A DNA stretch of 64,000 nt from Anolis carolinensis (taxonomy: Eukaryota). Below the pieces are notes generated by a model. The model did not search any database. It was given only the letters and a program-made list of their open reading frames with translations, and was not told the DNA's origin. This document shows positions 6,429 through 56,808 of this stretch, one piece after another. Numbering within the stretch: position 1 is the first letter of the stretch; every line of letters begins with the position of its first letter. The position numbers were made by a program, and so were the translations under genes. Where the stretch lies: NCBI RefSeq assembly GCF_035594765.1, contig NC_085842.1, positions 253,467,747 through 253,531,746 on the forward strand, in the 5' to 3' direction.

Positions 6429-7342
6429 ATTAAAGACGATAGCAGCAATCCTATGCATTTTCACCAAGCAGCAAGACAACTGAGCTGATAAGAACCTACC
6501 TCTGAGTACATCTGCTTAGAATTAAATTGCAGATTTGGGTTAAAAGAAGCCGATAGCAAGTTCCCTTGTATGTACAGTACATAATGCATCCAACTATAAA
6601 GTTTTACTGGCAGAAAAAACACCATCCCATAAAAGAAAGGTTTGGAGTATTCTGATTTTGCAAGATGAAGAATTCACATGCAGCCACATACATCAATACA
6701 CACACATATATACTGTATACAGGATGAACCATAACATGGTATATAATTTTGCAAGCTTTCAGGTCTCCCAGAACTCTTCATCTGGCAAAGAGGCACCACA
6801 GATCAACTTCTCCCCTTATCACCTCTATTTTGCTATTACTCAATGAAGAATTTTGGAGGACTCAAGAGCCTGCACAGTCCCAATAAAGGCATTGCTTTCA
6901 TTTTAACAAAATAAAAGTCAGTTCATAAATGAACATTTGCTGCCACAACACATTATTTTTTATTTTAATTACTGAGTAAGCCCAATGCAGAATTATCTTT
7001 TTATTTTAAATTTGATAAACTTTATATTAAAAAGAATGTTATATTTGCATTAATATAGTAGCACACATTGAAATGTTGGAAAACAGGAACCTGCCATACA
7101 CCAAAACAAACCTTAAGCGCATCTAGTTTGGTATTATCTCTAGTCCAGTAACAGGTAGATGCTCTCAAGAGCTTCAGAGAAAGGTTCCTCCCAAGCTACG
7201 GATGCCAGGAATTGAACCTGGCACACAAACCTTCCATTTTACCACACAAACAAAAATCTTCAATTTTATCACCAAACTAACTGGCATTCCTATTAACATT
7301 GTATCACATCAACAACAACAAGGAAGAGGAGAGTTCCTTTAC

Positions 7343-7496
7343 CTGCCCATTCCCCCATTGATTGGAAAAAAGTTGGGGGCAAAGTACTTCGTATGTATGG
7401 GAAGACATACTTCAGGAACCGAAGGCTCTTCACCAGGAAAACCAGACAAACAATACTTCCAAGGACAGTAAGCAGATGTTGCTGGAATTCACCCAT
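7343..7496 (-). CDS. HSD17B3: 17-beta-hydroxysteroid dehydrogenase 3, coding exon 1
   Basis: ATG at 7496; MGEFQQHLLTVLGSIVCLVFLVKSLRFLKYVFPYIRSTLPPTFFQSMGEWA resembles the HSD17B3 N-terminal anchor (human ...LPKSFLRSMGQWA); G|gtaaag donor; 154 nt. Confidence 0.93.
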
Positions 7497-10400
7497 GAGG
7501 AACAATTACAAGGATCCAAGATCACGTATTGCCACTGTCTGCCTCTCTCACTTGCTGCTGATACACTGGAGCTCTGGCAACAGATACAAACTGAAACATA
7601 AAATGGTCTCCCTAATCATGAACCCCTGAGTCATAAGCATCTCCCATCCTCCCCTCAAAGAATGTGCCAGAAGTTAGAACAGAAGGGCATTTTTGGCCCA
7701 GATATGGGAACTTCGGGACAGGCAAACACAGTGACTGTCCTTACCCCCACCTCAAAAATAGGAGATGTGGAGCCAGGCTAATAATATACCTTCATCTCTA
7801 GCTGGAGCAAAGAATGAATATGTTTGGGTTTATTTGCATGAACATTAAGATTATGCTCACTCACACCATATCCACACTATTATATAAATTAGTTTTTCCC
7901 AAATGGGTGTCCTCTAGATATAATAAATTACAATACCTGTCCAACTAGCTTTCTCAAATGTTGACTCAGGACCTCATCACATTTAATAGGGGAAAGTGGG
8001 GGAAAGCATAGGGAACTGTGTTACCCCATTCCCTCCTATCTTTTCTTGTCTTATGGGATGACCAGCCATCCCACGTCCTTTTTGTGTCTTACCGCTTCTT
8101 CCCCCCTCTTTCCCCCACATTCTTCATTCAGGAGTTGGGTAACACCCGACTCCTGGAGACAATTTTTGGGCTCAGTTTCCATGCACTGCAGAAATAGAGT
8201 CCCATAGAGTCCCATTGAGTCCCATTGGAAGTGCCCTTATTTCTTCTGATGGCCTTCAAGGGATTCCATTTCTTCAGGACATGAAAGGGGAGCCCAAAGG
8301 CCATCTGATGAAGTACTCAGCTTTGAACACCTCAAATTGTATTCCTGCTCTTTAGTATCCAAATTACCATTCTTGTCTCTTCCCTTTTCATGAACAAGCA
8401 GAAATATTACATGGCATACTACAGAGAACCCTTCAAAATGTTCCCTCAGATTAAATAACTAGAATTAGAACTAGAAAACCACCAGAGAGGGAGTGAGATT
8501 AGTCTTTATAGTTAGTTATTCATGTTTTAGTATCCAATTATGTATATCTTTGTATTGGTGTGTTTTATGTTTTGTGTTTATATGATTTTTGTGTGTGTTG
8601 TCATCTGTATGTTTTTTCTATGAGTTAGAAAGTAGATTATTGGGGTGTTTTTTAACGTATAACTTTATGATGTGCTTGTTCATATCACCTTCTCCCATAC
8701 AATCCGTCCCAAACACTGAGGTCCTTTGGAGGGTGGCTACTCCAGCCAGCCAGAACCTGACTGGTGACGGTCACCCAGAGAACCTTTACATCAGCCACCC
8801 CAACAACCTGCTGGAAGAACTATGATAGCTAAATGAGCTGTCGGAATTTAAAACACATCTGAAGACATATCTGTGCATTTTATATAACAATGATTCGCTG
8901 TTTAGCTACGTTGTAATCCACCTCGACCCACAAGGAGAGGTGAGTAAGAAATAAAATGATAATGATGATTATTATTATATTTGTATTTCCCTATCAATAA
9001 AAATTAGTAGCAAAAAGATTCACTTTTTAGACTGCAACTTGAAAAGTCCTCCAAACAGTATGGTCCCCAAGTATCATGTCCATAACATTAGAAATACTAC
9101 TTCCTGTTTTTAAACTTTCCCTTCAGACCAAAGTACAACAAGGGATATGGGCCTATGTTATTTTATCTACTATGTGATTTTAAAAATAAAAACAACATGT
9201 GTGTCACAGGTTCACAATTGTGCAGCAATATGCGTTTAGTGATGGCAAGGAATTAGTTTTGGGTGAGTTAGAGCTTTGCCCCTCAGCCATTCAAAATGGC
9301 TACATCACTGACATCATCAAGTCTCCAAGAGGAAGCAAAGAGTGCTTTACTTGGCACTGTGGTAGGTATTGTGGTGGTGGTGTCTTTAAGCTGTTTCCAA
9401 CCCATAGTGACCCTAAGGAAGGCCTCTCAAAGGGTTTTCTTAGAAGGAATTGTTCAAATGAGGTTTCCTCTGTGGTTGAGATGGAGTGACTTACCCAAGG
9501 CTATCCACTAGGTTTCAAGACTGAGCAAGAATTCAATCCCTAGTTTTATAGTCCAAGGCACAAACTACTGCACCAAATAACCCAACGTTATTCTGTATCT
9601 TTCTCTTTTTCTTTATAGGGAAGGTAGGAATAGCAAAGTTGTCTGTTCTCAAATGGCTGGAAGGAGCAAGGGAAAGGAATCTTTAGGGTTATTTCCGATC
9701 AGTTAGTCAAGACAACACCAAGCATCCCCTTGTGTTCTTATCCCTTTAGTATCATCTGGTGACTCCCCTGTTGGTTAGGTAGACCCTATATTGGGAGGAA
9801 GATGAGACAGAAATATTTTTTAAAACAAATCATTCTGAGTTTTAGTCAGAGGTACATTGAAACAGTCCAAGGTGTTGAACCCTATCCTTCAGAGGAGTTC
9901 AGCACCTTGGATAGCTCATTTAAAACTTGGATTAAAATAAGGAGTGAATACACTACTGCACTGAGATTGGAGCAACCAACAAGAAGGGCAAGTGGCATTT
10001 AAAACTGGTTGCTCTCAGCCGGCATTTGCAACTCAAGCCCAGAGCAGACAGTCTATCCTCCTCTCCCCTGCATCTGGAAAGGAGTGAAATATTCAGCTGG
10101 CACTTGCATCAAAAGGAATCCTTGCAAGACCAGCCAAGATAGTCACAGGGATTCCTTGTAGCCTAAGACAGGCCTTGACTACTAGAATAACATACATTTT
10201 ACTGGCAACTATGTGTGAACAGATAAAATTAGGGTACCCTGTAAGCTCCCTTTTTGTATTGTCTGTTTTGTTCACTCCCCACTAGTACACTGATATTGTC
10301 TAATTTCATTTGTGTTTACAATTCCTCCTCCATCAGTCATCTTTTTCTTGGCAATATACTGTGGGCCCTCCATACCATGGGTTCTGCATCCACAGATTAA

Positions 10401-11773
10401 ACCAACCACAGCTCAAAAATATATTTTATAAATCCCAAAAACCAAACCTCAGTGTTGCCTTGCACTGAATAATACATTAATATGTAGACATGCCCTGCTG
10501 TAGCTATCCGCCATTTCACAGATCCTCAGACTCTCTCTGGCATTCGTTTGAGTTGTTCCAACATGTTATATAAGGGATGCCATTTTACTATGCCATTGTA
10601 TAACATCGGATTTGTATCTCCACAGATTTTGGTATCCAGAAAATCCTGGGACCAAGCTGCAACAGATATCAAGGGCCCTCTGTACTCTAACTGTATCCTG
10701 CAGACTCCATTCATCTCCATCTTGTTGCTAAGTGTCATCAAGTTAGTTTCAAGCAACTTGCGGTTTCTCAAGTAGCTCCTGACATGAATGGGAAAAAATC
10801 CCTATGACTACCCTGTGAATGAGAGACCTCCAAAATACCCTATTGTTAAGAGCCTTGATCTCTAACTATAAGCTCTATACTTTTCCTAATATGCATTTTT
10901 CCTTTCACTTCAGAAGTTCTCTGACACTTGATTTCAACACATGTTTAATGTCACAAGCCACTAGAGATAAAATTCTCAACTGCAGGGGTAAGAAATTATG
11001 TTTTGGTCAGCATTTATTAGTTACCATTAGCCAGTATAGTCTGATGGAGAGGGATGATAGGATTAGCAGTCCAAAACATCCACTAATTTCATGATTTTTT
11101 TCTGTTATCTCCAATGCATATCCATTCTACTTTTCATTTCTAATTACACCAAATCCCACATGATTTCATAGGATACCATAATTTCAGTGGCATTTTAGGG
11201 AACACAGTATAAGGAGATGGGCAGAGAAGAGATGACCACATTATGAAAGGTTACTTTAGGATTTGCTCTCTCTGTTAAGCAGTTACCTTTAATGATGACC
11301 ATACAAATACAACCAGCACAATAAAAAGGAAATCTATTATTCACACATTTATCAGACACAGCATATTTTTTGGTATCAGATGTGCTTTTTCAGTGCATCC
11401 ACTGTTAGTCTAGTCCAATCCAATATCCTGGACCTCAATGAACCCTTGGGAGTTTTGAATTGTGTAGTCTGCACCTCCAACACCTTACTAATGCAAAGGA
11501 CCACCAAGAAGAAAATTGCATGACTTTACAAATGACATTTCATGGTTTGCCAGCAATAACTTCATGCAGGTGAATATTGTTGAAAGACATCTTGCATGTG
11601 ATAGGTTCGTCTATATGCGTGCACTTGTACTACAAGGATAGAAATCATGTATAGACAGTATATGATACTCCAAGGCCCTGACTCTGGTTCCAACTCTTCC
11701 AATTGCTAGGGAAAAAATGCCTCTTAAAAAGAGAATTGTATCCTAAATGCTTACAAGAACTATTACCCATTTA

Positions 11774-12034
11774 AGCCCTCGGTGGCGTAGTGGATTAAGC
11801 TTTGTGACTTGAAGGTTGGGTTGCTGACCTGAAGGCTGCCAGGTTCGAATCCCACCCAGGGAGAGCACGGATGAGCTCCCTCTATCAGCTTCAGCTCCAT
11901 GCGGGAACATGAGAGAAGCCTCCCACAAGGATAGTAAAAACATCAAAACATCCGGGCGTCCCCTGGGCAACTTGCAGACGGCTAATTCTCTCACTCCAGA
12001 AGTGACTCAAGTTGCTCCTGACACACACAAAAAA
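11774..12034 (+). mobile_element. tRNA-derived SINE (second family)
   Basis: Box A GGTGGCGTAGTGG, box B GGTTCGAATCCC, CA/A-rich tail. Confidence 0.75.
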
Positions 12035-14197
12035 GCTATTGGTCTTGGTTATTAAGTCACTCCTAGTATTGTTTGCTCTATGCTGGGATCCCAGTGTTTC
12101 ATGAGTAGTAACCATGTAGTTTTCTTCAGAAGCACATTAGGTGAGCAGTCAATGCCATTCACAGAAAACAAGAGACAGGTCTCAAAATGTTCAAAAGACG
12201 GTTGTTTATTGGTGGAAGAGGCCAATGCCTTTTGGTCTGCAGGACCTTCTTAGGGGGCTATATAAAAGGATACCATGTAATAATTAATGCCACATCACAT
12301 AAAATCATTACATTTGTGCATTACCTATTTCCCATATATATCTCCTTATACTCAAACTGTAGAAATTTCTGAACCAGGAACTCTTGCAACATTTACTAGA
12401 CAAATCAAAACATGTGAGCAAGGTCTTAAAGTTTTTAATATTTTGCAAGAAGATGATAAAAAAACATAGATAACATTCAAGGACATCTTATGATTTTATA
12501 TAGTCCCTTGAGGAAGGCTTAAATAGGCAAAAGTTCATCAGATATTTCTATCAACCTTTTTTCCCTGAGATTAAGATGTATCTTCCCCTTGTGATTTTCT
12601 TGCAATTATGGAAAACTTCTCTGTGTACATATGTCTTTAATAACTGGTGTTCTTTGAAATGAACAAAGAAACATGAGTAATGGATGGATTGGTGCAGTGT
12701 CTGTACCCATTGAGAACGAAGCTTCTGCTTGTTTTGTGCTGATCATGTAGAGAGATTGATTAAACAATGACCCATTTATATTGAAACACATTTGTACCCC
12801 TAAGTCAGGAATAGGAAACGTTTAGCTTCCCACAAATTTTGGTCTACAACTCCTAGATGACCCAGCTCACCATGGCCAATGGTAAGGAGCTGCAGAAGTT
12901 ACAACCCAAAGAAACTGAAAGGCACCGTGCCTCTCTAGCCCCCACATTTGTGAAGTTTGCTGGAATCTCAGATAAATAATACATCTCAAAATGTGAATAT
13001 CTAAAGAAATACATACCATTTTAAAATGCACATAAACAAGATTTAGTCAATGGGGGAAATGTTACCTTAGGCAACGGACAAGAAAAATGTGCATGGTACC
13101 CATAACACAAATTTCCCTGTGAAACATCCCCAAAAATCCTTGTAGCTCAGTACAAAACAGGAACAAGACAAATTACAAAATGAGATTCAAAGAAATGCAA
13201 TACAAGATAATACTGTTGTAATTCTCTGAGAGTTCCCATTTATTCACATCTTTAGCAATGTGGCTGACCTGGAGAGGGATCTTAGCATTGTGGTGAACTG
13301 GTTAAAAATATTGATTCAGTTTACACTCAGTATGAAAAGAGGAAAATTCAATTTTGAGGCCAATTAGGAAAGGAATCAAAAATAAATCTGTCCAAAGTGT
13401 AGTGCCCTTCAGCAAACTTCCAACATATTACTGATGAGAAAGAAAAGGCACAGGAAAGGCAACCAAAATGATCTGAAAGTTGGAGCAATTTTCCTTCATC
13501 ATCCATTTGTTCTCACACACACATTCTCTATCCATATACCTACCTACATTCTTCTCTCACAGAAAACTGTTAATCCATTTTCTCACACATATATCCTCAC
13601 ATGGTCACCTATCTGTTCACAAACCCTAGTAACCTTTAGAGACCTCTGTTCAACAAAATTACAACTATGTAATCACAGATGAAACAGCCTTCTCTGGATT
13701 CAGACCATAGTCTCTATTTCACTTCGTTCCCATGAAATATTTTGACAGAGAGCAATTTGTGGATTGTTGTTCCTATTTAGTGGTGATTAGTGGCTCTACT
13801 TTAGTCCCCAGATTTTAGTTTCAAAGAAGATATTTAACATGCTGAACCTTAATAGAGTTTAATATATTCATCATTTTGGATAGTTTCTTTAAATTTCTTT
13901 AAAAACCCAAGTGGATTCACCACTCTGCTAGCATGCAACCCACCAACTGCCACTATTTTTACTTCATTTTTTTGTAAAAAAAAAAAATGTGGATGCTGAG
14001 GACTGACGCATCTCCATTCAAAGTCTGTGCAGTACACTGAACTACGGCTCCCATTTTAAGAATTTTAATATGTGAAATATTTGTGGCCAAGATGTTATGC
14101 ATTGATATAAAAAGTTTACATTTAAGTTTCTTCTTTGATCTTCTGAAGTTTTCCTTTTGCAAATACAGGTTTTATTTCCTTTTAATTAGTATGATTA

Positions 14198-14489
14198 CAG
14201 CCAGTCCCCAAGTTACAAATATCTGATTTACAAACAACTCATAGTTAAGAACTAGGGTGAGACAACAAGAAGTGAGAGAAATCTACCCCTCGGAAGGGAA
14301 ATTCACTCCTGGAAGAGTTATCATGGGGAAAAGGTGTGTCCCCTGAAGCTTTAGCTCCAATCCTTGTCTCCACAATAAGCCATTTTTTTCAAAATCCAAT
14401 TCACCCAGGGACAGAAAGTGAGGGGAAATCTTCTGAACAGGGGCACAGACAGCAAAACAAACACCACAGAGCTGTTAACTTTTCCCTGT

Positions 14490-14550
<61 letters not shown>

Positions 14551-14650
14551 GGAGTTACACTTGAAAAATGTACCTGTTCTGACTTACAAACAAATTCAAC
14601 TTAAGAACAAACCTACAGAACCTATCTTGTTTGTAACTTGGGTACTGCAT
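14198..14650. mobile_element. Tc1/mariner-type element containing an (ATCT)n microsatellite
   Basis: Imperfect TIR CAGCCAGTCCCCAAGTTACAAA / TTTGTAACTTGGGTACTGCATG. Confidence 0.65.
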
Positions 14651-15402
14651 GCATTACGATTAAAAATATGTAAAAGCTACAAAGAGAATTGACATTTTAA
14701 TTACAAGTACAAACATCTTGTAAACACATGTAAGACACATCATAACCCTACCTACCTTTTTATTATAAAAGGGGTAAGAAATCTTTGGCTTTTCCATTGT
14801 TGTTGGGCTCCATCATTACTGATGCAAATAAAAGGTCACTAATGTCTGGAGTAAAGTTTGCTCTTATTGTTAATCATCTCTGTATTGCACAATAGCCTCC
14901 CCTCAAATCCCACATCCTATGCCATTTTGGAAGGTACCTTGACCTCCCAGAGTGGCTTTTTGAGAGGCTGTAAACAATGAAGTTGAAATGTTCTTTCCTA
15001 TGTGTAGAACTTTGTTCCAAAAAGTAAGAATTCAAACTACCAAGTGTCAGAAGTCTCCAAGTCCTTCTTTCAGCCACCCTGGCAGAACATGTATTTGTAT
15101 TGAGGTGTTATTCTGTACAGTCAGTCAGTCCCAGGACAATCGACTGCATCAGGTGGGCTAATCACATTGGAGTTCCATGAAGCCACAAAGTTGGCTGGAA
15201 TCACAGAAGGCTATCCAAATGAACAACAAATTTCTTGATGATGTTCAGATTTATGACGAGGAATAATACCATAAGACCCTTGTATCTGTGAAGGATATAT
15301 CCCCAGCCGGACCGGAGTTACCTGAAACTGCAGAATGCCCAGTTCTACCCTCAACAACCAATGCAACTCTATGATAACTTCTAGAGGAAGCATATCATAG
15401 AA

Positions 15403-15537
15403 CAGTGGTTCTCAACCTGTGAGTCCTCAGGTGTTTTGGCCTACAACTTCCAGAAATCCCAGCAAGTTTACCAGCTGTCAGGATTTCTAGGAATGGAAGG
15501 CCAAAACATCTGGGGACTCACAAGTTGAGAACCACTG
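15403..15537. mobile_element. hAT-type MITE (TIR CAGTGGTTCTCAAC); relatives at 20884-21015, 24073-24231 and 33724-33860
   Basis: Fold-back structure; perfect 8-bp TSD TCATAGAA. Confidence 0.9.
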
Positions 15538-16317
15538 TCATAGAACCACCGAGAATACCTAGAAAATTCTTAGAAAGTTGATTTTTCCCAAGTGAAACCA
15601 TAGACATGGGTTCTGCAGTTGCAGTTTAATGTATCTGTTTTTTCAGAGGACAAAGGTCCTGGCTTTCACTGGCTGCACTGTTCAACTGCGTGGAACCAAA
15701 AGGACACATCATTCAATTATCTGCCCTTAGATAGAGCCATCCATCCATCAGGTGAACTATAAAGCCACTCACACAATGTAGACAATTCAAGTACAAACCA
15801 AATATGGCCCTGAATTATTCAATAAAGACAACTTGTGCAAAACAGCTGGTAATTCTTCAGTAATGTGTAGTTGATACACACTGCTCTGAGCTAGCAGGTC
15901 ATTATTATTATTTTTTTTTAAAAAAATTAAGCTAGAATTTTGGCTTGCATTCCACAACCACAGAGGAGACAAGATGACAGAAAGCCAACACCCATGGTAA
16001 TTGCACAAAATCCCAGACTGAGCAAAGATTACCACTTTTAGACATTTGTAAGGCTTCTCAGATATGAACTAAGAAATTACAAATCCCTGCCATCCATTCT
16101 GATGAGTGCAAAAGCTTACATAATTGGCCTTGGTGTAGGGATAACCAGATTTATCTGCAGTCCACAGTTTTCCATTTGTCATCATCTGACAAAAACGATG
16201 GCTTGGTTTGAGATGCCCCAATGCAAGATGAGGTAGAGCTTTCATTTTGCATTCCTCTTCAGCACAACTTCTCGAATTTTCGGGAGTTTTACAGTTTTTC
16301 CATGTTGCTTCCTTCAG

Positions 16318-16420
16318 TCAGCTCTTGGCATCTTGCATTGCCTTTTCTTCATCTATGGGGTGCTTAAGACTGTCCTGCCCCCGTATTGTTAGAAACGAAT
16401 ATCTCAACCCTCCTGCCATG
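16318..16420 (-). CDS. SLC35D2: SLC35D2 exon 12 (last coding exon, TGA at 16318-16320)
   Basis: ctttag|(C)MAGGLRYSFLTIRGQDSLKHPIDEEKAMQDAKS*. Confidence 0.94.
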
Positions 16421-16508
16421 CTAAAGGAGGAAAACAGAGAACACACATGATCAGAAAGCTATGTTACAATCCATGTGGATTCAACACAACATTCAGTATC
16501 TCACTTAC

Positions 16509-16591
16509 CAGATATTGAGCCCAATGAAATTCAGCACAGAGAATATGTAGTCTCCTCCAACCAGCATTCCAATATAAGCGATGGTCACATT
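16509..16591 (-). CDS. SLC35D2: SLC35D2 exon 11
   Basis: ttacag|NVTIAYIGMLVGGDYIFSVLNFIGLNI|gtaagt; 83 nt; followed by an 88-nt intron. Confidence 0.95.
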
Positions 16592-17063
16592 CTGTAAAGG
16601 AAGAATGCTTGATTACATGGCCTCTTGGCATCACTGTACTTTTAGATATCCTTCTCAAGAATTGCAAATAACTGAGAAACTATTCTGATATGAAACTCTT
16701 GGGAGAGAAAATATTTTGAAAGTTCCAAAGTAGAAGATGATGGGCACCCACCCTCTTTCATTATGGAAAAACTTCTTACCATTTGATAGGTCATACAGTC
16801 TTCTTGGAGAAATGATTTCATGGGCAACATCAGGATATGAATTATAAAGTCATATTTAAGCTGTGAGTAGATGATATCTTGCCTACATTGTGCCTCTTTT
16901 CATATATTTTAGAATAGGCAGAAACTTCATAGTTATTTTAAACTCTCAGCCCTCAAATTACCAGACAATTTTCTGTTTTCAAGGCTGAAAGATAATCAGC
17001 TACAGGGTGACTTATATGGCTTACATACCTATTTCTGACACTATCAGCAGTTTGCTAACTCAC

Positions 17064-17142
17064 CTTTATAGCACCAACCACTGTGGTGGTGAGGGCAGAA
17101 TTATAATGGCTGCAGAGGATTGTAGAATACATCAGAAGAAAC
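17064..17142 (-). CDS. SLC35D2: SLC35D2 exon 10
   Basis: tgttag|(G)FLLMYSTILCSHYNSALTTTVVGAIK|gtgagt; 79 nt. Confidence 0.95.
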
Positions 17143-18267
17143 CTAACAAAAAGACATGTATTTTACTATTGGATTCTCTGCACATTTTCCTTTCTGAAAC
17201 AAGCATATGTAAGAATTGTAGCTTGGAGCAGCATTATTCCATGTTAACACTTCACTATCCCACATGAAGAAGACTGCAGTCTAAAAGGAACTGAACATAC
17301 AGATCTGAATGAAAATGCACAAATTAAAGTTAGATTCTGTGGACTTTGCTGCCCTCTGTCATCCTACCATCTCACAAAGTATCATGTGGACTGTCAGAAA
17401 CTAAAAACAAAACAAAGCAATGAAAAAATCTGTAACTCAGATTACAGTAGGCTTTCTGCTTTCATGTAGATTAGGGGCACAGGACCCTGCAAAAGTAGAA
17501 AAATTGAATTTAAAAAACTAGCTGAGAAAACACTTCTCTAGAAATCTCTAGATCCTCCAGGGTGACTCCGTGGTCAACTCCTGCTGGAAGAACTTAGAGA
17601 TTCCTAAAGAGAATCAAATCTGTGAATAATCAAATCTGCAAAATTTTAATTTGCTGATTGTAACTTCATTTATTAGAATTTATATAAAATGTTCGAAGCA
17701 TCACTTTCTGCCAAGTGCAAGCCGTAGCATTACTCTAGGAGTGGGTCATATATGCCCTGACCATTCTTGTGATCACTAGGTCTTCCTGATACAAGCAACA
17801 GCAATATCAACTTATTTTCTACTTTAAAAAGAAGAATTGCTATTTCTGGAAGCTTCCGATGAAGTGTTTTCCTCTGAATAATGTAGGCCAGATATTATGT
17901 ATCTACACTATGGGAATGCCTATACAGTCATCCGATATTAATGTGGCCAAGTCATAATAAACACAGACACTCTGAGATTACAGACTCTCCTCTGCATGAC
18001 TTGTAGGGTTTAAATATGATGAATTTGGGAAGCAGAATGCTCTTGATCTTTCCTAATCTTTTGTGTGGAATGCTGTACCCTTGGAAGCCCAACTGGTTCC
18101 AATCAATGATGGCACCAGTTCGGCACCAAGTCAAAATCTGGCTCTATATCCAAGTTTTCAGGGGCCAATGACTGCATTTTCTCTGAGTAGCTGGGTGTGG
18201 ATTTCAGTTCACTGTTTTACAGTTAAGATAATTTTATAATTGCTTATGTCACATTGTTGTCACCCTG

Positions 18268-36282: not shown

Positions 36283-37083
36283 TTTATTTCTTGTGTCAGA
36301 AGTGAACCGAGAGTACAAGTTGCAATAGATTTGCAAACATAGAGATTTTTTTTAAGAAAAAAAAACTTGGCATTAATACTAAATGTCTTTTGCCCAGTAG
36401 CTGGCCACTTGGAGTGCCTCTGGTGTTGCTATTAGAAGGTCCTCCATTGTGCATGTAGCAGGGCTCAGAATGCATTGCAGTAGGTGGTCTGTGGTTTGCT
36501 CTTCTCCACAGTTGCATGTTGCGGACTCCACTTTGTAGCCCCATTTCTGCTCTGCATCTTGTGGTGCCAGAGCGCAGTCTGTTCAGTGCCCTCCAAGTTG
36601 CCCAGTCTTCTGTGTGCCCAGGAGGGAGTCTCTCATCTGGCATCAGCCACTGATTAAGGTTCTGGGTTTTAGCCTGCCACTTTGGGACTCTCACTTGCTG
36701 AGGTGTTTCTGCGAGTATCTCTGTAGATCTTAGAAAGCTATTTCTCGATTTAAGGCATTGGCGTGCTGGCTGATATCCGAACAGGGACTGGGCTGGAGAT
36801 GTCAATACCTTGGTCCTTTCATTGTTGGCTGCTATTTCCTGGCGGATGTCAGGTGGTGCAATGTTGGCTAAGCAGTATAATTTCTTCAGTGGTGTGGGAC
36901 GTAGATATCCTGTGATAATGCAGCATGTCTCATTAAGAACCACATCCACTGTTTTAACGTGGTGAGATGTATTCCACACTGGGCATGCGTATTCAGCAGC
37001 AGAGTGGCAAAGCACAAGGGCAGATGTCTTCACTGTGTCAGGTTGTGATCCCCAGGTTGTGCCAGTCAGCTTTCATACGATTT
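36283..37083 (-). mobile_element. 5'-truncated Ingi/Vingi-like non-LTR retrotransposon
   Basis: ORF 36296..37033 with SAAEYACPVW and WRALNRLRSGTTRC; AAAT-type tail; 12-bp TSD TGTTTGTGAGTA at 36271 and 37084; second 3' fragment at about 51695-51950. Confidence 0.8.
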
Positions 37084-38161
37084 TGTTTGTGAGTAAACAA
37101 GATATGTTAATTTTCAAAGAAGACTCTTTTTTTTTATCCATGACTGCATATTTTAAACTAAGAGGTTTCAAGAAAGTATATATCTTTTGGGCAACTGCAA
37201 GTTCAACTTCAAAATAACAACCATTCTCTGCTAATAAATATATTTTTGTAGTGCCATGTCAATCTGCCTCATCACACCAGAGCATGGATTCACTTTAAAC
37301 CCGGTTTCTGCTTCCTGCAGAATTCTGAGGTTTGTAGTTTGGTGAGACCCAGGACCTGTCTGGCTGAGCTGTTTAAAGACCCCTCCCTAAAGTTTATTTA
37401 AAGTTGATCCAAGCTCCAGTGTGATGAGGTCCTTTATCCTTGGCAGTTCAAAGACATGGATCTTCAGAGTGTATCCAGGCAGCCCTTTTAAAGCGGGAGA
37501 TCCCGCACTTTAAAATGGGTCATCCAGATGACGTACTACAGAAAAATGAATTCATTTGCCACAAACAAGGAAAATCTTGGTTTACAGCCAATTAATTTGC
37601 TAGCCCATTAAACACACGTCTTTCTGAAAGGCCCAGGTCCAATGGGCTATGGCCCTGAGTGGACAGGCTCACGGAGAGTCCTGGGACTTCCCTGCAGTCT
37701 GTCCAAACACCCATCCCACACTTTCTGGACTCTTGGAGCCCAGAAGGTGTAAGATTGCCCCACCCCCCCTCCCAAAACCCCTTAAAATTGTGAAAACAGT
37801 AAAAATAACTTAAGGGGTTTTGGCAGGGGGTGGCGGCTGTCTTCATGTTTTCCCAGGAGGACATATATAGCACCTGCGGAAAGTGTGGGCTTTTGGGGCA
37901 GTGTGTGGATTATAGTCCGCCCCAACCTGAATGTTTTAAACCCAGGTTGAAGTGGACTTTACTGCTGTCTGGAATCGCCCTCAGTTTAACAGCTGAGATA
38001 CCTGTGTGCCATTACATGAATGCTTATAAATATCACTGGTTCAAAGAGTTGGCTTCTAACAAGGGTACGCTTATTTTGACTAGTGGTTTTCAAACGGTGG
38101 TCTCCACATCTTCATGCCAAACGGATGTGACATCATTTATTATCTTTTCAATAAGGTTATA

Positions 38162-38350
38162 ATTGTCGAAGGCTTTCATAGCCGGAATCACAAGATTGTT
38201 ATGTGTTTTCCAGGCTGCATGGCCATGTTCCAGAAGTATTCTCTCCTGACGTTTCGCCCACATCTATGGATGCCTGCCATAGATGTGGGCGAAATGTCAG
38301 GAGAGAATACTTCTGGAACATGGCCATGCAGCCTGGAAAACACACAACAA
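38162..38350. mobile_element. Penelope pseudo-LTR palindrome (74-bp arms, 7-nt loop) in SLC35D2 intron 1
   Basis: Arms 38196-38269 and 38277-38350 are reverse complements with 2 mismatches. Confidence 0.88.
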
Positions 38351-39146
38351 CCAAGGTTATGATGGCCATTTATTTCCAACGGGATATGTGCCCTGAGACT
38401 GGGTGCAGTTATTTCCGATTCCCCCTTGTTAGTAATAGTAAGCTGTACTTTTCTGGATCTATACACAATTAAAGTCTGTTTGTTTTAGAACTGGATGTGA
38501 ACTTGTAATAAAGGAAGAGTTTATTGAAGAAAGTGCTGGTTTCTCAAATAAATACACCCGAAAGTTGGAAGGAAAGGTGTTGGTACCTTTCCTTCCAGCA
38601 ATAAAACCTGTTTGCTGGCTTTTGATGAATCACAGATCGCACCCTGCTCTCCCTTTCAGGCTCTTCAGGTGCCAGGAGAGAGACCTTTGGAACCGGGGTT
38701 TATTCTAAGCGTGGCACCTGCACAAACTTTTGAAAGATCCCAGAGGTTATTGCTTAACACTTTGACCAAGTGAGAGTTGGAGGGGGAAATGGGGCCTTGT
38801 TCCAGGCATGGGCCAACTTGGGCTCTCCCTCCAGGGGTTTTGGACTTCAACTCCCACCATTCCTTACAGCCTCAGGCCCTTTCCTTTTGCCCCTCAGCCG
38901 CTTAAGCGGCTGAGGGGCAAAAGGAAGGGGCCTGAGGCTGTAAGGAAAGGTGGGAGTTGAAGTCCAAAACCCCCGGAGGAAGGGCCCAAGTTGGCCCATG
39001 GATGTAGATGCAGCCAAAGTCTCCAAGAAGTAGGTCCTGGCCCTGATCGCGGGCAAGAAGACGTGAAACGGATGTTGGGACATGCAATCCAGCCCCTGGG
39101 AGGCTTCAGGCGAGGCTTTGCTCCATCCGAGCTGCTTGCTCCTCAC

Positions 39147-39295
39147 CTGTAAGCGGTCAGCACCGCCTTGTTGACCAGGACCATGGTGAAGGAGCAGATC
39201 CCGTAGAAGAGGGCGGAGAGCAGCTTGGGCAGCGGGGAAGCAGCCGAAGAAAGAGAAGCTGCAGCCAGCTCCGCGCCCGCCGCCTTGGCTCTCAT
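39147..39295 (-). CDS. SLC35D2: Nucleotide-sugar transporter SLC35D2, exon 1
   Basis: ATG at 39295; MRAKAAGAELAAASLSSAASPLPKLLSALFYGICSFTMVLVNKAVLTAY + AG|gtgagg; the 12 exons total 1008 nt = 335 aa + stop. Confidence 0.92.
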
Positions 39296-39316
39296 CGCTT
39301 GGCGCAGGCGCCCGGA

Positions 39317-40285
39317 CCATTCGCCCAGCGGAGGGAACGGGAAAGAAAGCAAGAGCCCCGAGCTCGGATCAGGGCCACGCCCCCTATTCGCCGACCACGC
39401 CCACTCTTTGATCGCCACGCCCACTCGCAACCTGCCAGGCCAAAGGAGCCTGCATTCGCTCAGCGGAGGAAACAGCCAAAGCTCGGGTTGGGCCACGCCC
39501 CCTGCTCGACGGCCACGCCCACACTCTCCATCGGTTGGGCCAAAGGAACTCAGTGGAGAAAGCAGCTAGAGCCAGGCTTGAGGCCGCGCCCTCTGCTCGA
39601 TCGCCACGCCCCCTCCTCGATCGCCACGCCCACTCGAATCCTGCCCAGCCAAAGGAACCTCCCATTCGGTCAGCGAAGGAAACGGCCCAAGCTCGGCTTG
39701 GGGCCACGCCCCTTACTCGACTGCCACGCCTACTCGTTCTATCTGCTCAGTCAAAGCAGCTCAGCGGAGGAAACGGACAGCGCTCGGCTTGAGGCCACGC
39801 CCCCTGCTCGTCGGCCACGCCCCCTGCTCGTCGCCCACGCCCACTCGCAACCTGCCAAGCCAAAGGAGACTCCATTCGCTCAGCGGAGGGAAAGGCCAGA
39901 GCCCGGCTTGGGGCCACGCCCCCTACTCGACGGTCACGCCCGCCTCTCTGAGTGCCACGCCCACTCGATCTATCTGCTCAGCCAAAGGATCTCAATGGAG
40001 GGAAATGGACAGAGCTCGGGTTGGGCCACGCCCCCTGCTCAATCGCCACGCCCACTCGCAACCTGCCCAGCCGAAGGACCCTCAGCTGATTCGCTCAGAG
40101 GAAAACAGCTAGAGCTCGGGGTGGGCCACGCCCCCTGCTCGGAAGCCACGCTCATCCGCTCCACAAAGGGAACGGGACTAGGAACCTGCCCCGCCCATTC
40201 GCTCCATCTGCTCAAGGAAAGCCGGAGTCAGCCCTGCCTTCCTCGCGTATCGTTCTCTCCCTCCCTCGGCCACGCCCACCCTTTC
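39317..40285 (-). promoter_or_regulatory. SLC35D2 CpG-rich promoter formed by a tandem array with about 18 Sp/KLF-type CCACGCC boxes
   Basis: About 8 units (120, 90, 120, 90, 120, ~113, ~100, partial), each with 2-3 GCCACGCCC-like motifs about 20 bp apart, directly upstream of the ATG. Confidence 0.85.
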
Positions 40286-41244
40286 CCTCCCTTTGAAACC
40301 GTTGCAGCACCGTTCGAGCGCCCCCTAGCGAGGATTCCCTTAACAACACCCCCCCCTCTATATTTTCTTTCCCACTCCTCTTCCTTCATTGACCAGGTAA
40401 GAAGCTAAAAACAAAGGATGAGAAGACACGCAATGCAGGAAGCCTCGACATCGTAGAATGAATGCAGTTTGGCGCCACTTTAACTGGCCTGGCTCAATGC
40501 TATGGGATCTTCGGAGTTGTAGTTTGACAAGGTCTTTAGCCTTTTTTTTTGCCAGTGTGAATACTTTTCAGGACCACACGCTGCTCTTTAGACCCTCTCC
40601 TCCCTACTCTACCGACTTTGCAAAAGGCTCTACAATGGGCCCTTGGTATTTGCTATCGTCCTAGATAACAAAACCCATGGCTGCTCCGGACTCATTATTT
40701 ACACTGGGATACAAGTATAGGGAGATGGCATCCCTTAAATGGCAAAACCAAGATTTGGTTATTGGATTAAAAAAAATACATTCCAGCTGTAGATGGTCGA
40801 ATCTGTGGAAAAATTAAATACAGAATTAAAATTACAATAGTATAAAAGTGTGGCAAAATTGCCTCAATGTGGGCAGTGCATTGCTTCACAGGGACAACTG
40901 GAGCCCCTTACATACAATTGTAATTCAAAGTGGAATTTGCATTTCTAAGTCATTACTATAACACGTATCATTTAACATAAATGTATTTATGTACCCTTCA
41001 AATAATTACCATAATTATTAGCTACTAAAGGGCACATATAATTTGAAAGGACACCCTGTATTTATTTTTATTTTATAAAACCCACTGGGGGCCCTTCTAC
41101 ATTGCCATATAAAATCCAGATAATCTACTTTGAACTAGATTATATGGTAATGTTGTCTTTGCCTTCAACTGAGGTTGAGTATGATGAAATGAAGGTCTCC
41201 AAATGGATTTCTGTGGCTGAGCAGAAATTGTACATCTTGGAGAC

Positions 41245-47342: not shown

Positions 47343-48892
47343 CTAATAAAGTTAACAGGCCATGATCAAAGCTCTAATACTTGTAGAAAGAAATACATAC
47401 TTCTAATGAAATCAATTGTAAAAGAGACCTAAACTCATAAGACATGTAATGTTAGCCATGTGTCTTGGAAGTTCCATGCTTTGAAATGTATCCTTCAACA
47501 AATTTGCCCACTCTAGGAAGTAACAATGTACCCTATGTTGGCATGTATTTAATACAATACAGGATAAGATCCCTTATCTGGAATTCTGAAATTCTCCACA
47601 CAGCCATCTTTGCTTTCTGATGGTTCAATGTACATAAATTTTGTTTCATGTTCAAAATGATTTAATTTATTTAAATTTTATAAATATGATAAGATGTATA
47701 TGAAGCATAAATAAATGTGTTTAGTCTTGGGCTCTACTGCCAAGGTATCTCAAAATGTACAGGTAATCCTAAATCTGGAATCTAAAACATTCTTGGTCCC
47801 AAGCATTTCCAGTTTGAAATCAGATTGTTTTGACAAAACGCCACCATGGTGTTGAATTAAAGTTCATGGTTTGAACCCCCATACAGCCATGGAAGCCCAC
47901 TGGGTGACTTTGGGCAAGTCACATTCTCTCAGCCTCAGGGAGCGGCAAAAAACAAATCTTGCCAAGAAAGCCTTGTGCAGGAATGATGCAGCTTTGACAT
48001 ATTAATAACCATGGCACAATGTTATGGAACCAAGGCAGTGGTATTTTGCAAAGTCTTGAGCGTTCTCTGCTATCTCACCAAACCACAGCTGTCCATAGTA
48101 TTGAACCATGGCAGTTGAAGCGCATTAACTCCACAGTGCAGATATACTAGTCATTGCAGGATTTACCATTGTGCTTAGGTGTGCACAGGGCCCCATTGGT
48201 GGGGACGGGGATTACTCCTGCCATTTTTTCACAACAGATTTTGCTTATGTGCTGCAATTCTAAATTTGAAGTCATTCTGTTTTGGAGCTATTCCAGACAT
48301 AACAATAGAGTTGATAAGTCTATAGGAGTGTGCCACAAAGCAGGCAGTGTAGGCTTACCTCCTTCAGGGCCAAAATAAGCTACCTCATAACTTAAATTTG
48401 TTTTAAATCTGGCACTGCCCCCAGTTCATCTACACAGTAGAGTGGGACATCTTTTGAATGGCCCTGGCTGAGTGCTATGGAATCATGGGAGATGAAGTTT
48501 GACAGGGTGTTTGGCCTTCTCTGGCAAAGAGTGCTGTTGCCTCGTCAATTTCCAAAACCAGGATTCCATAGCATTGCACCATGGCAGGTAAAATGATGTC
48601 AAACTGCATCAATTGACAAAGAGGACAAAGGGACTACCTTGGGCATTTCAAATAAACTGGGGCAACTAAATTCGTTTAAAAAGAGAGGACTATCCTTGAA
48701 CACTCAGGAGAGTAAAGGCTATTATTTAAATCAGGCATGGGAAAATTTTGGCCCTCCAGGTGTTTTGGACTTCAACTCTGATTTAAAGGCTATATATGAA
48801 TGTGTGTGAAAAAACAAAATAATTCCAGGGCAGATACAAAGAGTTCGGTAAGAACTCATCCACACTTTTTCTGCAGCACAGAAACAACTCCC

Positions 48893-49699
48893 TTGTCTGA
48901 GTTTTCCAGGCTGTATGGCCATGTTCCAGAAGCAAGTTCTCCTGACGTTTCGCCCACATCTATAGCAGGCATCCGCAGAGGTTGTGAGGTCTGTTGGAAA
49001 CTAGGCAAAGGGGTTCATATATCTGGTGAAGGTCTAGGGTGGGAGAAATAACTTTCATCTATTGTGTAAAGTGAATTTTGCAATTAATCACCTCGATTAC
49101 CATTGACAAGCCTTGCAGCTTCAAAGCTTGGATGCTTCCTGCCTGGGGAAATCCTTTGTTGGGAGGTATTAGCTGGCCTTGATTGTTTCATGTCTGGCAT
49201 TCCCCATTTTCAGAGTGTTGTTCCTTTCTTTACTGTCCTGATTTTAGAGTTTTCTAATACTGGTAGCCAGAGTTTGTTTATTTTCATGGTTTCCTCCTTT
49301 CTGTTGAAATTGTCCACATACTTGTGGATTTCAGTGGCTTCTCTGTGTAATCTGACTTGGTGGTTGTTAGAGTGGTCCAGCATTTCTGTGTTCTCAGATA
49401 ATATACTTTGACCATGTTGGTTCCTCAAGTGCTCTGATATAGCTGACTTCTCTGGTTGAGCGAGTCTGCAGTGCCTTTCATGTTTGATTCGTGTCTGGGC
49501 AATGCTGCATTTGGTAGTCCCTATGTAGACTTGTCCACAGTTGCATGGTCTACGGTAAACTCCTGCAGAAGTGAGAGGATCCCTCTTGCCCTTTGCTGAA
49601 CGTAGGATTTGTTGGATTTTCTTAGTGGGCCTGTAGATAGTTTGGAGGTTGTGTTTCTTCATCAGCTTCCCTATGTGGTCAGTGGTTCCCTTAATGTAT
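48893..49699 (-). mobile_element. Penelope-like retroelement 3' part: GIY-YIG endonuclease remnant + pseudo-LTR with hammerhead motif
   Basis: ORF 49210..49662 has GVYRRPCNCGQVYIGTT..RIKHERH..SAISEH..REATEI..FNR (GIY-YIG/Uri domain); degenerate hammerhead at 48941-48981. Confidence 0.9.
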
Positions 49700-49789: not shown

Positions 49790-50067
49790 TGCAAACATTA
49801 CTCCACAGCTGCTGCAGAAATGCCTCCAACAGACAAGAGTTCTTTCTCTCACCTGATCTCCCTCGGGAGGGCATTCCAAAGCCAGGAGGCCACTACCGAG
49901 AAGGCCCTCCCCGGTAGATCTTATACCAATATACCTCACAACCTCCGAGGATGCCTGCCATAGATGTGGGCGAAACGTCAAGAGAGAATTCTTCTGGAAC
50001 ACGGCCATACAGCCCGGAAAACTCACAGCAACCCAGTGATTCCGGCCGTGAACGTCTTCGACAACAC
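49790..50067 (+). mobile_element. Penelope-like pseudo-LTR, inverted relative to the 48893 copy
   Basis: cacaacctccgaggatgcctgccatagatgtgggcgaaacgtc..cagcaacccagtgattccggcc; reverse complement of 48900-48990. Confidence 0.85.
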
Positions 50068-50403
50068 AACTCCCCCTTTCCTCTTCCTAGACCACAGGAA
50101 AAGAGGGTCCCGCCAACTGCGCGTGCGCCACCTGTTTCTCGCCGCGCGCCCGCACTCCCACCCGCTGATTGGCTGCCGCGCCTGCCTGCGCGCGAGACGG
50201 CAGTTTAAAAGCAAAGGAGGGAACACCCCCTCTCTGCCCCACCCCCCAATCGATGGTGTTTTGGCGCGCGGAGCTGTCGTCACAGGGAAGCGTGAATCAG
50301 AAAAGGGGGCGGGGTTGCTGGAATCCCCCCCCCCCCCCGCGCGCCAACGGCCTTTCTTTCCTTCTCCCCTTCCCGTGTAACCCTTCCCGCGCTGAGGGCT
50401 CAC

Positions 50404-50730
50404 CCGCAAGTGCCCGCCGAGGCCGCTGTCCGGGCTGCCGGCTTCGTCGTCTTGAGGAGGCGGCTGTGGGGCGGCTCCTCCTCCTCGCGCTCCGTCGGCG
50501 CGGAGAGCCTGTGGCGGCGGGCTGAGCGTGACGTTGTGCGCGTTCTCCCCCCAGCGCCACGGGTAGACCATGAACTCGCTGAAGCCCGGGCTGGTGGGCA
50601 CCGGGGGCCCCAGGGCAGACGCTGCCACCGCCGCCTCCTCCTCCTCGCGGGGCCGCTTGACCGGTGTGGTCTTGATGACGGAGACCAGGACGCGCTTCGG
50701 GGACTCCGCCGGGCGCAAGAGCACCGACAT
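50404..50730 (-). CDS. ZNF367: C2H2 zinc finger protein 367, exon 1
   Basis: SPKRVLVSVIKTTP and PTSPGFSEFMVYPWRWGENAHNVTLSP are ZNF367 signature blocks; CGG|gtgagc donor; 327 nt; the 5 exons total 975 nt = 324 aa + stop. Confidence 0.93.
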
Positions 50731-50779
50731 CCCGTCTCGCTCTGGCCCGCTTCCCGACCGCGCCGCGACTCGCCAGCCC

Positions 50780-51125
50780 GAGCCGAGACTTTTCCCGCGT
50801 TACGTTTCGCGCCTGGGCGGGGGGTGGACGTCAACAGATCGACAGTCGTCTCCAACCAATCACCTCACAGCAAAATGCCGGACTCTTCGGCATCAAAGGG
50901 AAAAGAGGCGCGCGGGGTGGGGCTTAGCTATAACCCGGACTGCCGGTTGGATGGCGGTGACTCAGCGCTAGCCAATAGAATTCGAAAGCAGGCTGAGAGG
51001 GGCGGGGCTCCGGCAGTGAAAGACTGTTTAGAGGCGATTGGCCTTCGCGCTGGAAGGAGGCGGGACCTGTAGTACTGGCGGTTAAATCGGCAGTAAACAT
51101 GTTGGTCTGTTTTGGCGCGTTATTT
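50780..51125 (-). promoter_or_regulatory. ZNF367 CpG-island promoter, cell-cycle type (E2F + NF-Y + GC boxes)
   Basis: TTTTCCCGCG 50790, TTTCGCGCC 50805, TTTTGGCGCG 51110; CCAAT 50856 and 50972, ATTGG 51037; GC boxes near 50815 and 51000; TTCGAA (CHR-like) 50981. Confidence 0.75.
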
Positions 51126-51269
51126 ATACTGAGGCTGGGCCTGGCCTGTGGTAACTGTCTTGCTGTATCTGTTTATCTCGTGGTGCATCCATTTAAACTG
51201 TGACGCTGAAGCAATAATACACAATAGTATTGAAATGCGGGAAGTTATTTTTGAGATTGTAACTTCCAG

Positions 51270-54939: not shown

Positions 54940-55133
54940 CCAATTATTACATTTACACCTGCCTCAAGCAGGCAAGAGCTCTTTCTTCCACCCTGGACTT
55001 TCCACAGATATATAAACACTCTCGCCTAGTTTCCAACAGACCTCACAACCTCTGAGGATGCCACAGATGCAGGCGAAACATCAGGAGAAAATGCTTCTGG
55101 AACATGGTCATACGGAAAACTCACAGCAGCCCA
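54940..55133 (+). mobile_element. Penelope pseudo-LTR abutting the HABP4 promoter
   Basis: TATATAAA 55009, hammerhead motif 55049-55085, then aggagaaaatgcttctggaacatgg. Confidence 0.85.
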
Positions 55134-55139
55134 CCGACT

Positions 55140-55536
55140 ACTTTTCCTTCGCGAGTAACCACGTGACGCCATAGACGCTCTACACTATTGGTCCACGGCG
55201 TGGGAAATTCTATAAGCGCGCTCGGATTGGCCGGTTGAGGGGGAAAGAACGCACGGTGCCGATTGGGCGATGACTCGGCGTCGGAGGGACGCATTATTGG
55301 GTAAACCCCCTCCGGCAGAGGCGAGGGCGCGGATTGGTGGCGTCTTCCTAGCGTGGGCCGGCTCCTGAGCGCGGATTGGCCAGAGCCAGGCGAAGGGGCG
55401 GGCGCGCGGGCATGGCGTGGTGACTTGGGCCGCGCCGAGGCCGCTCTCGCCCTTTCTGTCGCAGTCAGGAGCGGGCGGGTGACGGTGCCTCCTCCTCATC
55501 TCCCTCGTCGTCGTCCTCGCCCTCCTCACGGCGACG
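55140..55536 (+). promoter_or_regulatory. HABP4 CpG-island promoter/5'UTR with E-box and six inverted CCAAT boxes
   Basis: CACGTGAC 55160; ATTGG at 55187, 55226, 55262, 55296, 55333, 55375; GC box near 55395. Confidence 0.8.
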
Positions 55537-55852
55537 ATGATGAAGGGCGCGCTGGCCAGCCCCGTGGCCGCCGCCGGCCCACCCGCCGCCATGCAGGAGG
55601 CCTTCGGCTGCGCCGTCGCCAACCGCTTCCACCAGCTCCTCGACGACGAGTCCGACCCCTTCGACATCCTGCGCGAGGCCGAGCGGCGCAAGCAGCAGCA
55701 GCAGGGCAAGAAGCGCGAGGAGGCCGCGGCTCCGGGAAGGAAGGCCGGCCCCGGAGCAGCGCCTCCCGCCAACGCCGCCAACGCAGCCAAGAGGGAGTCC
55801 CAGAAGGAACGCAAGGCCGCAGCCCTGCAGCCGGAGAGCCCTCCCGCGCCCG
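55537..55852 (+). CDS. HABP4: HABP4 (Ki-1/57, SERBP1 family) exon 1
   Basis: M(M)[53 protein letters not shown]; G|gtagga donor; start at 55537 or 55540. Confidence 0.94.
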
Positions 55853-56808
55853 GTAGGAAGCCACAGGGGCGCATGTACGCACTGGAATTAATGCAGTTTG
55901 ACGCCGCGGCCACTTGCTATGGAATCCTGGGAACTCTGCTTTGGCAGAGAAGGCCAAAGGCCTGGTAAAAAGTTCCACACCATTGAGCCCATAGCATTGA
56001 GCCGCGGAAGTTGAGGTGGTGTCAAAGTGCATTAATGCTTTGATATAGATCAGGTCTGGGCCAACTTGGGCCATCCGGGTGTTTTGGACTTCAACTCCCA
56101 GCATTCCTAACAGCCTCAGGCCCTTTCCTTTTCTCCCTCAGCCGCTTAAGGGTTAAGAAATGCTGGGAGTTGAAGTCCAAACCACCTGGAGGGCCCAAGT
56201 TGGCCCAGGCCTGATCTATACTGCAGAATGAATGCGGTTTGAAACCACTTTCACTACCATGCTTCAATGGGAGCAGGGACTTTACTGGTTTTGGCTTTCT
56301 CTGCCAAAGTGTGCTGGTGCCTCACCAAATTAGAACTCCACAGCATTGAGCAATGGCAGTCCAAGTGATGCTAAGCCATATTCATTCTACAGTATTCGAA
56401 TAAATCAGCTCTGATCAGTCTACCTCCAAATCTCTCCATGTTGGTGATGCACTTTTTAGTCATGCGTCCTTTCGCGACACGGTAGTTCGGTATTTCCATT
56501 TTACTGGCAAACCAACCCCTTGTAAGAATTTCATACAATATGTAATATCTATCTATATTAATATATGTTTCATGTAATCTCGATAAAAGAGGCTTGGAAT
56601 TTTCGATAGCTGCTCCACGTGGTTTATCACAAACTTCATTGTCAACAGATTTTTTTTGTTTCAATTTTTGAGGTAATTACTACAACTCAATCAATAAATC
56701 GTACAAATTATTAAGGCTATAACAGTATTTACGCTTGAACAACATTAGCCTTTGTTTGTTGGGCAGAGTATTTTTTTATGTGACTAGTGACTTCAAGTGA
56801 CACTAGTG

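Follow-up and report, generated by a model that had tools for sequence, protein, structure and literature searches.

The window analysed here, a stretch of 64,000 bases of Anolis carolinensis DNA, contains a minus-strand gene whose first exon has its coding part at 39147–39295, with the ATG at 39295. Among named relatives, the exon 1 peptide comes closest to Anolis sagrei SLC35D2, whose first nine residues are identical, and the A. sagrei protein maps to 12 coding exons on the minus strand, from 39295 down to 16321. Exon 1 translation and 12-exon mapping thus bear out the assignment to SLC35D2 that was made in a preliminary description of this DNA. The gene codes for a Golgi sugar transporter. 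According to the accessible part of PMC9368800, UDP-GlcNAc is supplied by SLC35D2 and may be used for heparan sulfate. No in-frame upstream ATG which would lengthen SLC35D2 was found. The SLC35D2 model of Lacerta agilis carries about 100 additional N-terminal residues, whose comparison with the translation of the array described below was not significant (E 0.57).

Directly upstream of the gene a diverged tandem array (39317–40290) is embedded in a CpG island (39100–40500). CpG islands are commonly defined by a GC content >55%, a CpG observed/expected ratio >0.65 and a length >500 bp; the 5' end of SLC35D2 exhibits the values of a CpG-island promoter, with a GC content of 0.65, a ratio of 0.81 (array) vs 0.31 in the window and a length of about 1.4 kb. 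High-copy repeats begin at 40453, right at the edge of the island, and TATA-like hexamers are absent from 39200–40500. A further gene on the same strand as SLC35D2, which we take to be ZNF367-like, ends about 4 kb upstream of the array; those pieces of it that were scanned gave no Pfam match. HABP4 is located upstream of SLC35D2 on the plus strand (Pfam IHABP4_N, E 1e-34). The window holds two more CpG islands arranged head to head, at 50050–51050 (first exon of the ZNF367-like gene, minus strand) and at 55050–56000 (HABP4, plus strand), each carrying 6 GC/GT boxes in mixed orientation compared to 20 in the array.

Further elements were noted in the window. In SLC35D2 intron 1, a loop-free hairpin element at 38807–39000 has 97-base arms that are 95% complementary; it is presumably MITE-like, and a resembling sequence seems to lie near 56100–56300. 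At 38150–38350 a short repeat is represented by two pieces in inverted orientation, with the frames of both strands translating to a nearly identical peptide, and related pieces are found near 48800–49050, 49800–50000 and 51100–51250. The minus-strand open frames 36296–37072 and 49210–49698 resemble retrotransposon remnants, presumably a reverse-transcriptase tail and a GIY-YIG-like endonuclease, respectively, with no Pfam family at E 0.01.

Layout and history of the array

The eight unit starts given in the preliminary description were recovered at 39361, 39480, 39570, 39690, 39781, 39900, 40013 and 40113, each at most one base off. Read on the minus strand like the gene, unit 1 (39361–39479) is of a long spacer type with three boxes (39375, 39395, 39415) and unit 2 (39480–39569) of a short type with two boxes (39493, 39513). 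The long type with three boxes recurs in unit 3 (39570–39689; 39584 as a variant, 39604, 39624) and unit 5 (39781–39899; 39795, 39815, 39835), the short type with two boxes in unit 4 (39690–39780; 39704, 39724). Unit 6 (39900–40012) is short with three boxes (39914, 39934 as a variant, 39955) and unit 7 (40013–40112) long with two (40026, 40046). Unit 8 (40113 to about 40222) is a degenerate short type (40126, a variant at 40146 and a GC-box variant at 40189), followed by the relic of a ninth unit (about 40223–40290) with a single intact box at 40270. Measured between first boxes, the units are 118, 91, 120, 91, 119, 112, 100 and 100 bases long.

Towards SLC35D2 each unit proceeds from its boxes via about 20 bases to a pyrimidine-rich head and a spacer, and the final head stops 22 bases short of the SLC35D2 ATG. 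This gene-proximal copy (39317–39340), pyrimidine-rich on the minus strand, is 83–92% identical to three internal copies and is a putative start region. The proposed recurrence of a unit segment near the ATG stands, with one mismatch in the 18-mer quoted for it, and the array does take in the gene-proximal segment. Out-of-frame ATGs are located at 39320, 39455, 39531, 39665 and 39875, all of them except 39531 being those carried by the head and the long units.

The motif CCACGCC occurs 18 times on the plus strand of the 64,000-base window, always within 39375–40270 and never outside this interval, and the three copies on the opposite strand (55197, 55414, 58528) are distant from the array. In 1000 dinucleotide shuffles of 39317–40290 it was counted 0.25 times on average and three times at most. 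The previously reported 18 motifs and three variants (39584, 39934, 40146) in a single orientation were confirmed, with the GC-box variant at 40189 as a further member. Likewise, the described sub-repeat of ~20 bp was recovered by TRF in two places (39583–39635 and 39793–39842); 20-bp sub-repeats begin 79 bp upstream of the ATG and continue further upstream. The units are 65–88% identical with spacers included, so that similarity reaches beyond the motif as in a homotypic site cluster. Many sites of one family (18 motifs vs at most 3 in shuffles) together with this wider similarity characterize the array as such a cluster. With a minisatellite repeated in tandem in the proximal promoter, it also resembles an Sp1-site promoter VNTR.

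The alternation of ~120 and ~90 bp that had been described applies to five units, but not to the others (112, 100 and 100 bases). Similarly, the suggested dimer of ~210 bp is reflected by TRF (period 211, 2.7 copies, 80% matches), but the real higher-order unit is a ~100+91-bp dimer, present four times, with extra boxes on top. Without their middle boxes units 1–7 measure 99, 90, 100, 91, 99, 92 and 100 bases, and the 120-bp units equal 100-bp units plus a third box. Evidently, the 120/90 rhythm originates from extra 20-bp boxes that were added to ~100+91-bp dimers. Two spacer types, each marked by common indels, alternate in units 1–7, and the long/short split ranks first of the 35 splits of seven units, with an identity of 0.795 within and 0.728 between types. 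Identity, conservation and tree counts took in seven of the eight units, unit 8 being left out; unit 8 itself clusters with the short type. In the tree of the seven units none of the four inner branches was supported, and the best tree does not separate long from short types.

The third box agrees with its neighbouring box in 20/20 positions in unit 5, where the middle 20-mer copies the first, in 17/20 in unit 3 and in 13/20 in units 1 and 6; the third boxes accordingly differ in age. The mean corrected distance between units outside the boxes amounts to 0.38 (0.31 within type), and due to this distance the amplification of the array is regarded as old. From the layout we infer that a module of two boxes at a distance of 20 bp was duplicated, its copies diverging into ~100-bp and ~91-bp types, that the ~100+91-bp dimer was then multiplied four times, and that single 20-bp boxes were gained or lost later in units 1, 3, 5 and 6. 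The turnover of single boxes seems to be still ongoing. With respect to the direction of copying, either a promoter that was copied outwards or a repeat that turned promoter would fit without an outgroup.

Helical phasing of the boxes, which had been proposed as well, could not be upheld. Adjacent boxes follow each other at a distance of 20 bases (1.9 turns); nothing of longer range, however, exceeds chance: the coherence of the boxes at 10.5 bp is 0.21, as the phase is broken by the inter-unit gaps (71 and 78–81), and 3683 of 20000 null arrays do as well as the best period of 10.04. The suggested G-quadruplex potential was not corroborated either. The array holds no canonical pattern (G3, loops 1–7) and one with loops ≤12, and with 5 G4Hunter windows beyond 1.5 compared to 42 it is weaker than the island of the ZNF367-like gene.

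Two further readings of the array were tried and rejected. As an array of CTCF sites, whose core is resembled by the first boxes, it was discarded, the 13-mer overlapped by nine boxes being one to two mismatches off the consensus with a G at the second C position; this second C is near-invariant in the CTCF core consensus. A CTCF-like site with one mismatch to the CTCF consensus lies on the minus strand at 40319–40331, just upstream of the array and before the repeats at 40453. The plus strand exhibits a stop-free frame of 453 codons (39047–40408) that spans exon 1 and the array, a length reached by 2 of 1000 shuffles. This length is unconvincing, since the choice of the region depended on its stops and the array has only 8 stop triplets, for which the chance of one stop-free frame across the array is about 0.12. 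Coding was rejected, as there is no Pfam match and the 20-bp gaps described below would shift the frame. The frame stops just past a donor-like CAG/GTAAG (about 40396–40403) and might indicate divergent transcription out of this CpG island.

Copy number and length differences in public runs

The presence of 39010–40420 in public runs was scored by sampled words, of which 20 runs from 7 studies contain 0.67–0.95; no RNA run was among those listed. Furthermore, the contigs of 4 of the 24 listed runs (X11, X17, X18 and X21) were aligned to the region at 80% likeness. Run X21, from another organism, matches the flanking repeats only and was not counted as evidence on conservation. In X17, the deepest run, the depth over the array is 70–100 vs 95.5 over exon 1 and intron 1, while the flanking repeats reach depths of 1e4–1e6 with thousands of contigs at 80% likeness. 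As contigs of three runs carry the array, its depth in X17 equals that of the unique flank and the flanking repeats are hundreds- to thousands-fold deeper, an artefact and, at this likeness, a dispersed repeat are both dismissed. Further copies of the unit are absent from the 64-kb window, and the many genomic copies typical for the monomer of a dispersed satellite or transposon were not seen in X17 at 80% likeness. A dispersed satellite or transposable element, which the preliminary description had named as a refuting case, is thereby contradicted at this likeness.

Capture of a mobile element, whose 5' monomers or LTR repeats would have been taken over as a promoter, has precedents in the accessible text of PMC5381506, where the promoter monomers of mouse and rat L1 are described as CpG-rich and tandemly repeated, and 70–100-bp tandem motifs are described for several L1 5'UTRs. 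However, no contig family was found on the array in X17 at 80% likeness, whereas the old flanking repeats draw thousands of contigs, no element body adjoins the array and the plus-strand open frame has no Pfam match. A single bin (39788–39874) shows a small unexplained excess worth about 30 letters. Altogether, we regard such a capture as very unlikely. The excess of contig depth in this bin is seen in X17 and X11 and absent in X18; it reflects either the longer allele or a short similar sequence that belongs to another locus.

Assembly artefact had also been named as a refuting case. An artefact might account solely for the exact 20-bp duplicate of unit 5, which the main contigs of X17 and X18 lack, as do probably those of X11. 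For the array as a whole the artefact is refuted and its probability is practically negligible: the units are only 65–88% alike, in three runs the contigs agree with the array except for 0–3 other differing letters each, and 20 runs contain it. The longest exact internal repeat has 28 bases, which is shorter than the 31-letter word, and the contigs can therefore not have collapsed units.

Gaps in the contigs were placed via the depth per bin. In X18 20 bases are missing at about 39596–39615 (unit 3), a difference carried by one contig of depth 4.5; unit 3 is complete in X11. Both X17 and X18 lack 20 bases in the bin 39788–39874 (unit 5). Run X11 has 30 gap letters, 10 of them near 40350 and 20 unplaced, which most simply, and probably, fall into unit 5. 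Thus, 20-bp gaps relative to the window were found in 3/3 runs of the organism, with the unit-5 copy being a possible assembly error. Among the four sequences compared, only the window has the extra box of unit 5, which could be due either to a rare allele or to an error of assembly. An X18-like allele would carry 16 motifs rather than 18. The word share expected for the shorter allele (0.90) fails to reproduce the common value of 0.85. With regard to unit-number polymorphism, for which genotyping had been suggested, no gain or loss of a whole unit was observed in the covered parts of the compared runs (X11 lacks cover in 40571–41005, X18 in 39005–39467).

An apparent insertion in unit 1, where an X17 contig fits to 39414 and continues with 589 unlike letters, was rejected as a ligation junction at GATC. 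The breaks in X17 (39414/39410, 39602/39617, 39988) coincide with GATC sites, and so does an insertion of 4 bases at 39044, which resembles a library that was cut and religated; X17 is consequently uninformative on the unit-3 box. Runs of this kind, which gain GATC or break at GATC sites, can imitate insertions.

Conservation and proposed function

The boxes exactly match the Sp3 consensus NGCCACGCCCMCN 14 times and the BTEB4/KLF16 consensus 17 times, in each case on one strand, and neither consensus occurs outside the array on any strand of the window. Both are printed in the motif table within the accessible part of PMC10434948, which agrees with the earlier identification of the motif as the Sp/KLF GT-box. 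Sp/KLF proteins are accordingly predicted to bind the ~20 GT-boxes of the array. In seven of the eight units, 3/126 letters of the 9-base box cores deviate from the consensus compared to 91/495 elsewhere (Fisher 5e-7). As a control for ascertainment, column shuffles gave two equally conserved windows in 85 of 5000 cases (p about 0.017); after ascertainment the excess conservation of the boxes is modest. A second conserved block, GCCAAAGGA, is found once per unit in units 1–7 (39439, 39539, 39648, 39751, 39859, 39981 and 40070) and differs in 3/63 letters. Since it is nearly as conserved as the GT-boxes, another factor may matter. In some units the block holds an NF1-type half site, but this short motif is common across the window.

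A methylated and closed array whose activity is independent of unit number was the remaining case that had been named as refuting. Outside the cores, 7/42 CpGs are changed to TG/CA (about 8% per letter), and transitions were counted in 31/243 of the other C/G letters (13%). As non-core CpGs decay no faster than other C/G letters, a methylated history is argued against; decay of the methylation type is not observed among the units. Run X11 comprises only 19.7 million contig letters, yet two of its contigs cover 39005–39669 and 39716–40542, and its repeat-to-array depth ratio of about 190–250 is 30–70 times lower than that of X17 (6,800–17,300). This pattern is a weak hint at open or unmethylated chromatin or an enrichment library, with summed contig depth being a poor measure.

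On balance, we consider it rather probable that this single-copy array represents an old local duplication of the proximal promoter module of SLC35D2 and acts as its CpG-island promoter via Sp/KLF. In such a promoter, Sp/KLF factors on the boxes would drive TATA-less transcription, additively or synergistically, and their binding would keep the CpG island unmethylated. For Sp1, synergy across several sites and the protection of CpG islands from methylation are described in the available part of PMC5168829. Productive initiation would occur mostly in the gene-proximal head, at about 39320–39350, and the upstream units would serve as activating sequence. Owing to the out-of-frame ATGs which they carry, transcripts from distal units would be poorly translated, and distal units are accordingly more plausible as activating sequence. 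The reduction from 18 to 16 sites is expected to have a small effect. In the accessible part of PMC3118111, an Sp1 core promoter of 222 bp became only 1.4-fold more active when it was doubled by engineering. Furthermore, more Sp sites need not raise expression, as XRCC5 repeats were reported to reduce it (PMC4829605, in part) and Sp3 can repress promoters with multiple sites (PMC5168829, likewise in part).

It appears unlikely that every unit is a whole core promoter which fires its own start site at this polymerase II gene, with the ATGs of the long units damping distal transcripts and the number of boxes or units tuning Golgi UDP-GlcNAc in wild lizards. The models for a start site in every unit would be rDNA spacer promoters or L1 monomers.

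The main rival of the promoter-module reading is that the array is a mutational by-product: an open Sp/KLF promoter active in the germline would duplicate its own sites, only one or two gene-proximal units would matter and the rest would be tolerated. As far as the available text of PMC8559717 goes, short insertions (5–20 bp) in human spermatogonia are enriched at SP/KLF motifs and often duplicate the motif, and neighbouring sites commonly originate by local duplication (PMC3188502, in part). This explanation agrees with the 20/20 duplicate of unit 5 and with the differences of 20 bp from run to run. However, the boxes of distal units are nearly intact too, with spacers being 18% off consensus, and the spermatogonial mechanism is described for short insertions, not for units of 100–200 bp. 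We therefore rate the by-product explanation as a possibility of clearly less than even chance.

A protective rather than activating role, in which the boxes and the upstream CTCF-like site would shield the island from repeat-borne methylation and from read-through of the upstream gene, is distinctly unlikely in our view. It would be consistent with the high-copy repeats from 40453 at the island edge, the hairpin element at 38807–39000, the CTCF-like site at 40319–40331 and the same-strand gene ending about 4 kb upstream, which we assume to be ZNF367-like. Protection of the Aprt CpG island by Sp1 sites is described in the accessible part of PMC5168829; however, three Sp1 sites are enough at Aprt, and protection is compatible with the promoter-module reading.

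Comparison with known systems

Tandem repeats of Sp1 boxes which drive TATA-less transcription are known from the 21-bp repeats of SV40 and the 48-bp repeats of mouse Dhfr, which, unlike the array, consist of three to four short repeats without a higher-order unit. TPMT, ALOX5 and CSTB are, in addition to XRCC5, examples of promoter minisatellite VNTRs with Sp1 sites. Promoter VNTRs are common according to the accessible part of 10.1101/2020.11.03.367367. The human 21-bp promoter VNTR of XRCC5 (PMC4829605, available in part) shares with the array a repeat of ~20 bp with one Sp/KLF site in the proximal promoter; its repeat number differs between alleles, to which the 20-bp differences between window and runs may correspond in the array. 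XRCC5 carries 0–3 near-identical copies in an otherwise unique promoter, whereas the variable 20-mers of the array are nested in eight diverged ~100-bp units (four dimers) that fill the whole upstream kilobase.

Homotypic clusters formed by local duplication, as described in the accessible parts of PMC3188502 and PMC8559717, are likewise made up of adjacent sites that share their descent and resemble each other outside the motif as well, and SP/KLF sites are prone to short duplications. Within these texts they are described up to about 50 bp, while the array adds levels of 100 and about 190–210 bp and comprises about 20 sites in a single orientation.

The spacer promoters and enhancer repeats of rDNA (PMC12326227, in part) also place duplicated promoter sequence upstream of the main promoter, with CTCF as upstream boundary. 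This likeness concerns the layout only, since rDNA repeats involve RNA polymerase I, multicopy genes and TTF1 terminators, whereas the array adjoins a single-copy protein-coding gene of 12 exons and thus falls outside the rDNA-spacer class. The monomers of rodent L1 5'UTRs (accessible part of PMC5381506) resemble the array in being CpG-rich, arranged in tandem, about 200 bp long and equipped with promoter signals, but belong to a dispersed retrotransposon, whereas the array is single-copy.

In a literature search of titles and abstract openings, with subscription journals mostly outside its scope, we found no paper on the SLC35D2 array and none on a promoter array of higher order at a vertebrate gene of single copy. 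In principle such an array is nothing new, since Sp1-site promoter repeats and duplication-derived site clusters are well established. It stands out by its unusual scale and nesting, with levels of 20 bp, ~100 bp and ~190–210 bp and eight copies of one module. The array thereby constitutes a natural dose series for the question whether extra Sp/KLF sites are selected or piled up by mutational bias, which is left open in the available part of PMC8559717; a sign of extra demand for UDP-GlcNAc in lizards is not contained in the array. By analogy with the systems above, the array would work like an Sp1-site promoter VNTR of the XRCC5 kind which is nested in a homotypic cluster made by duplication.
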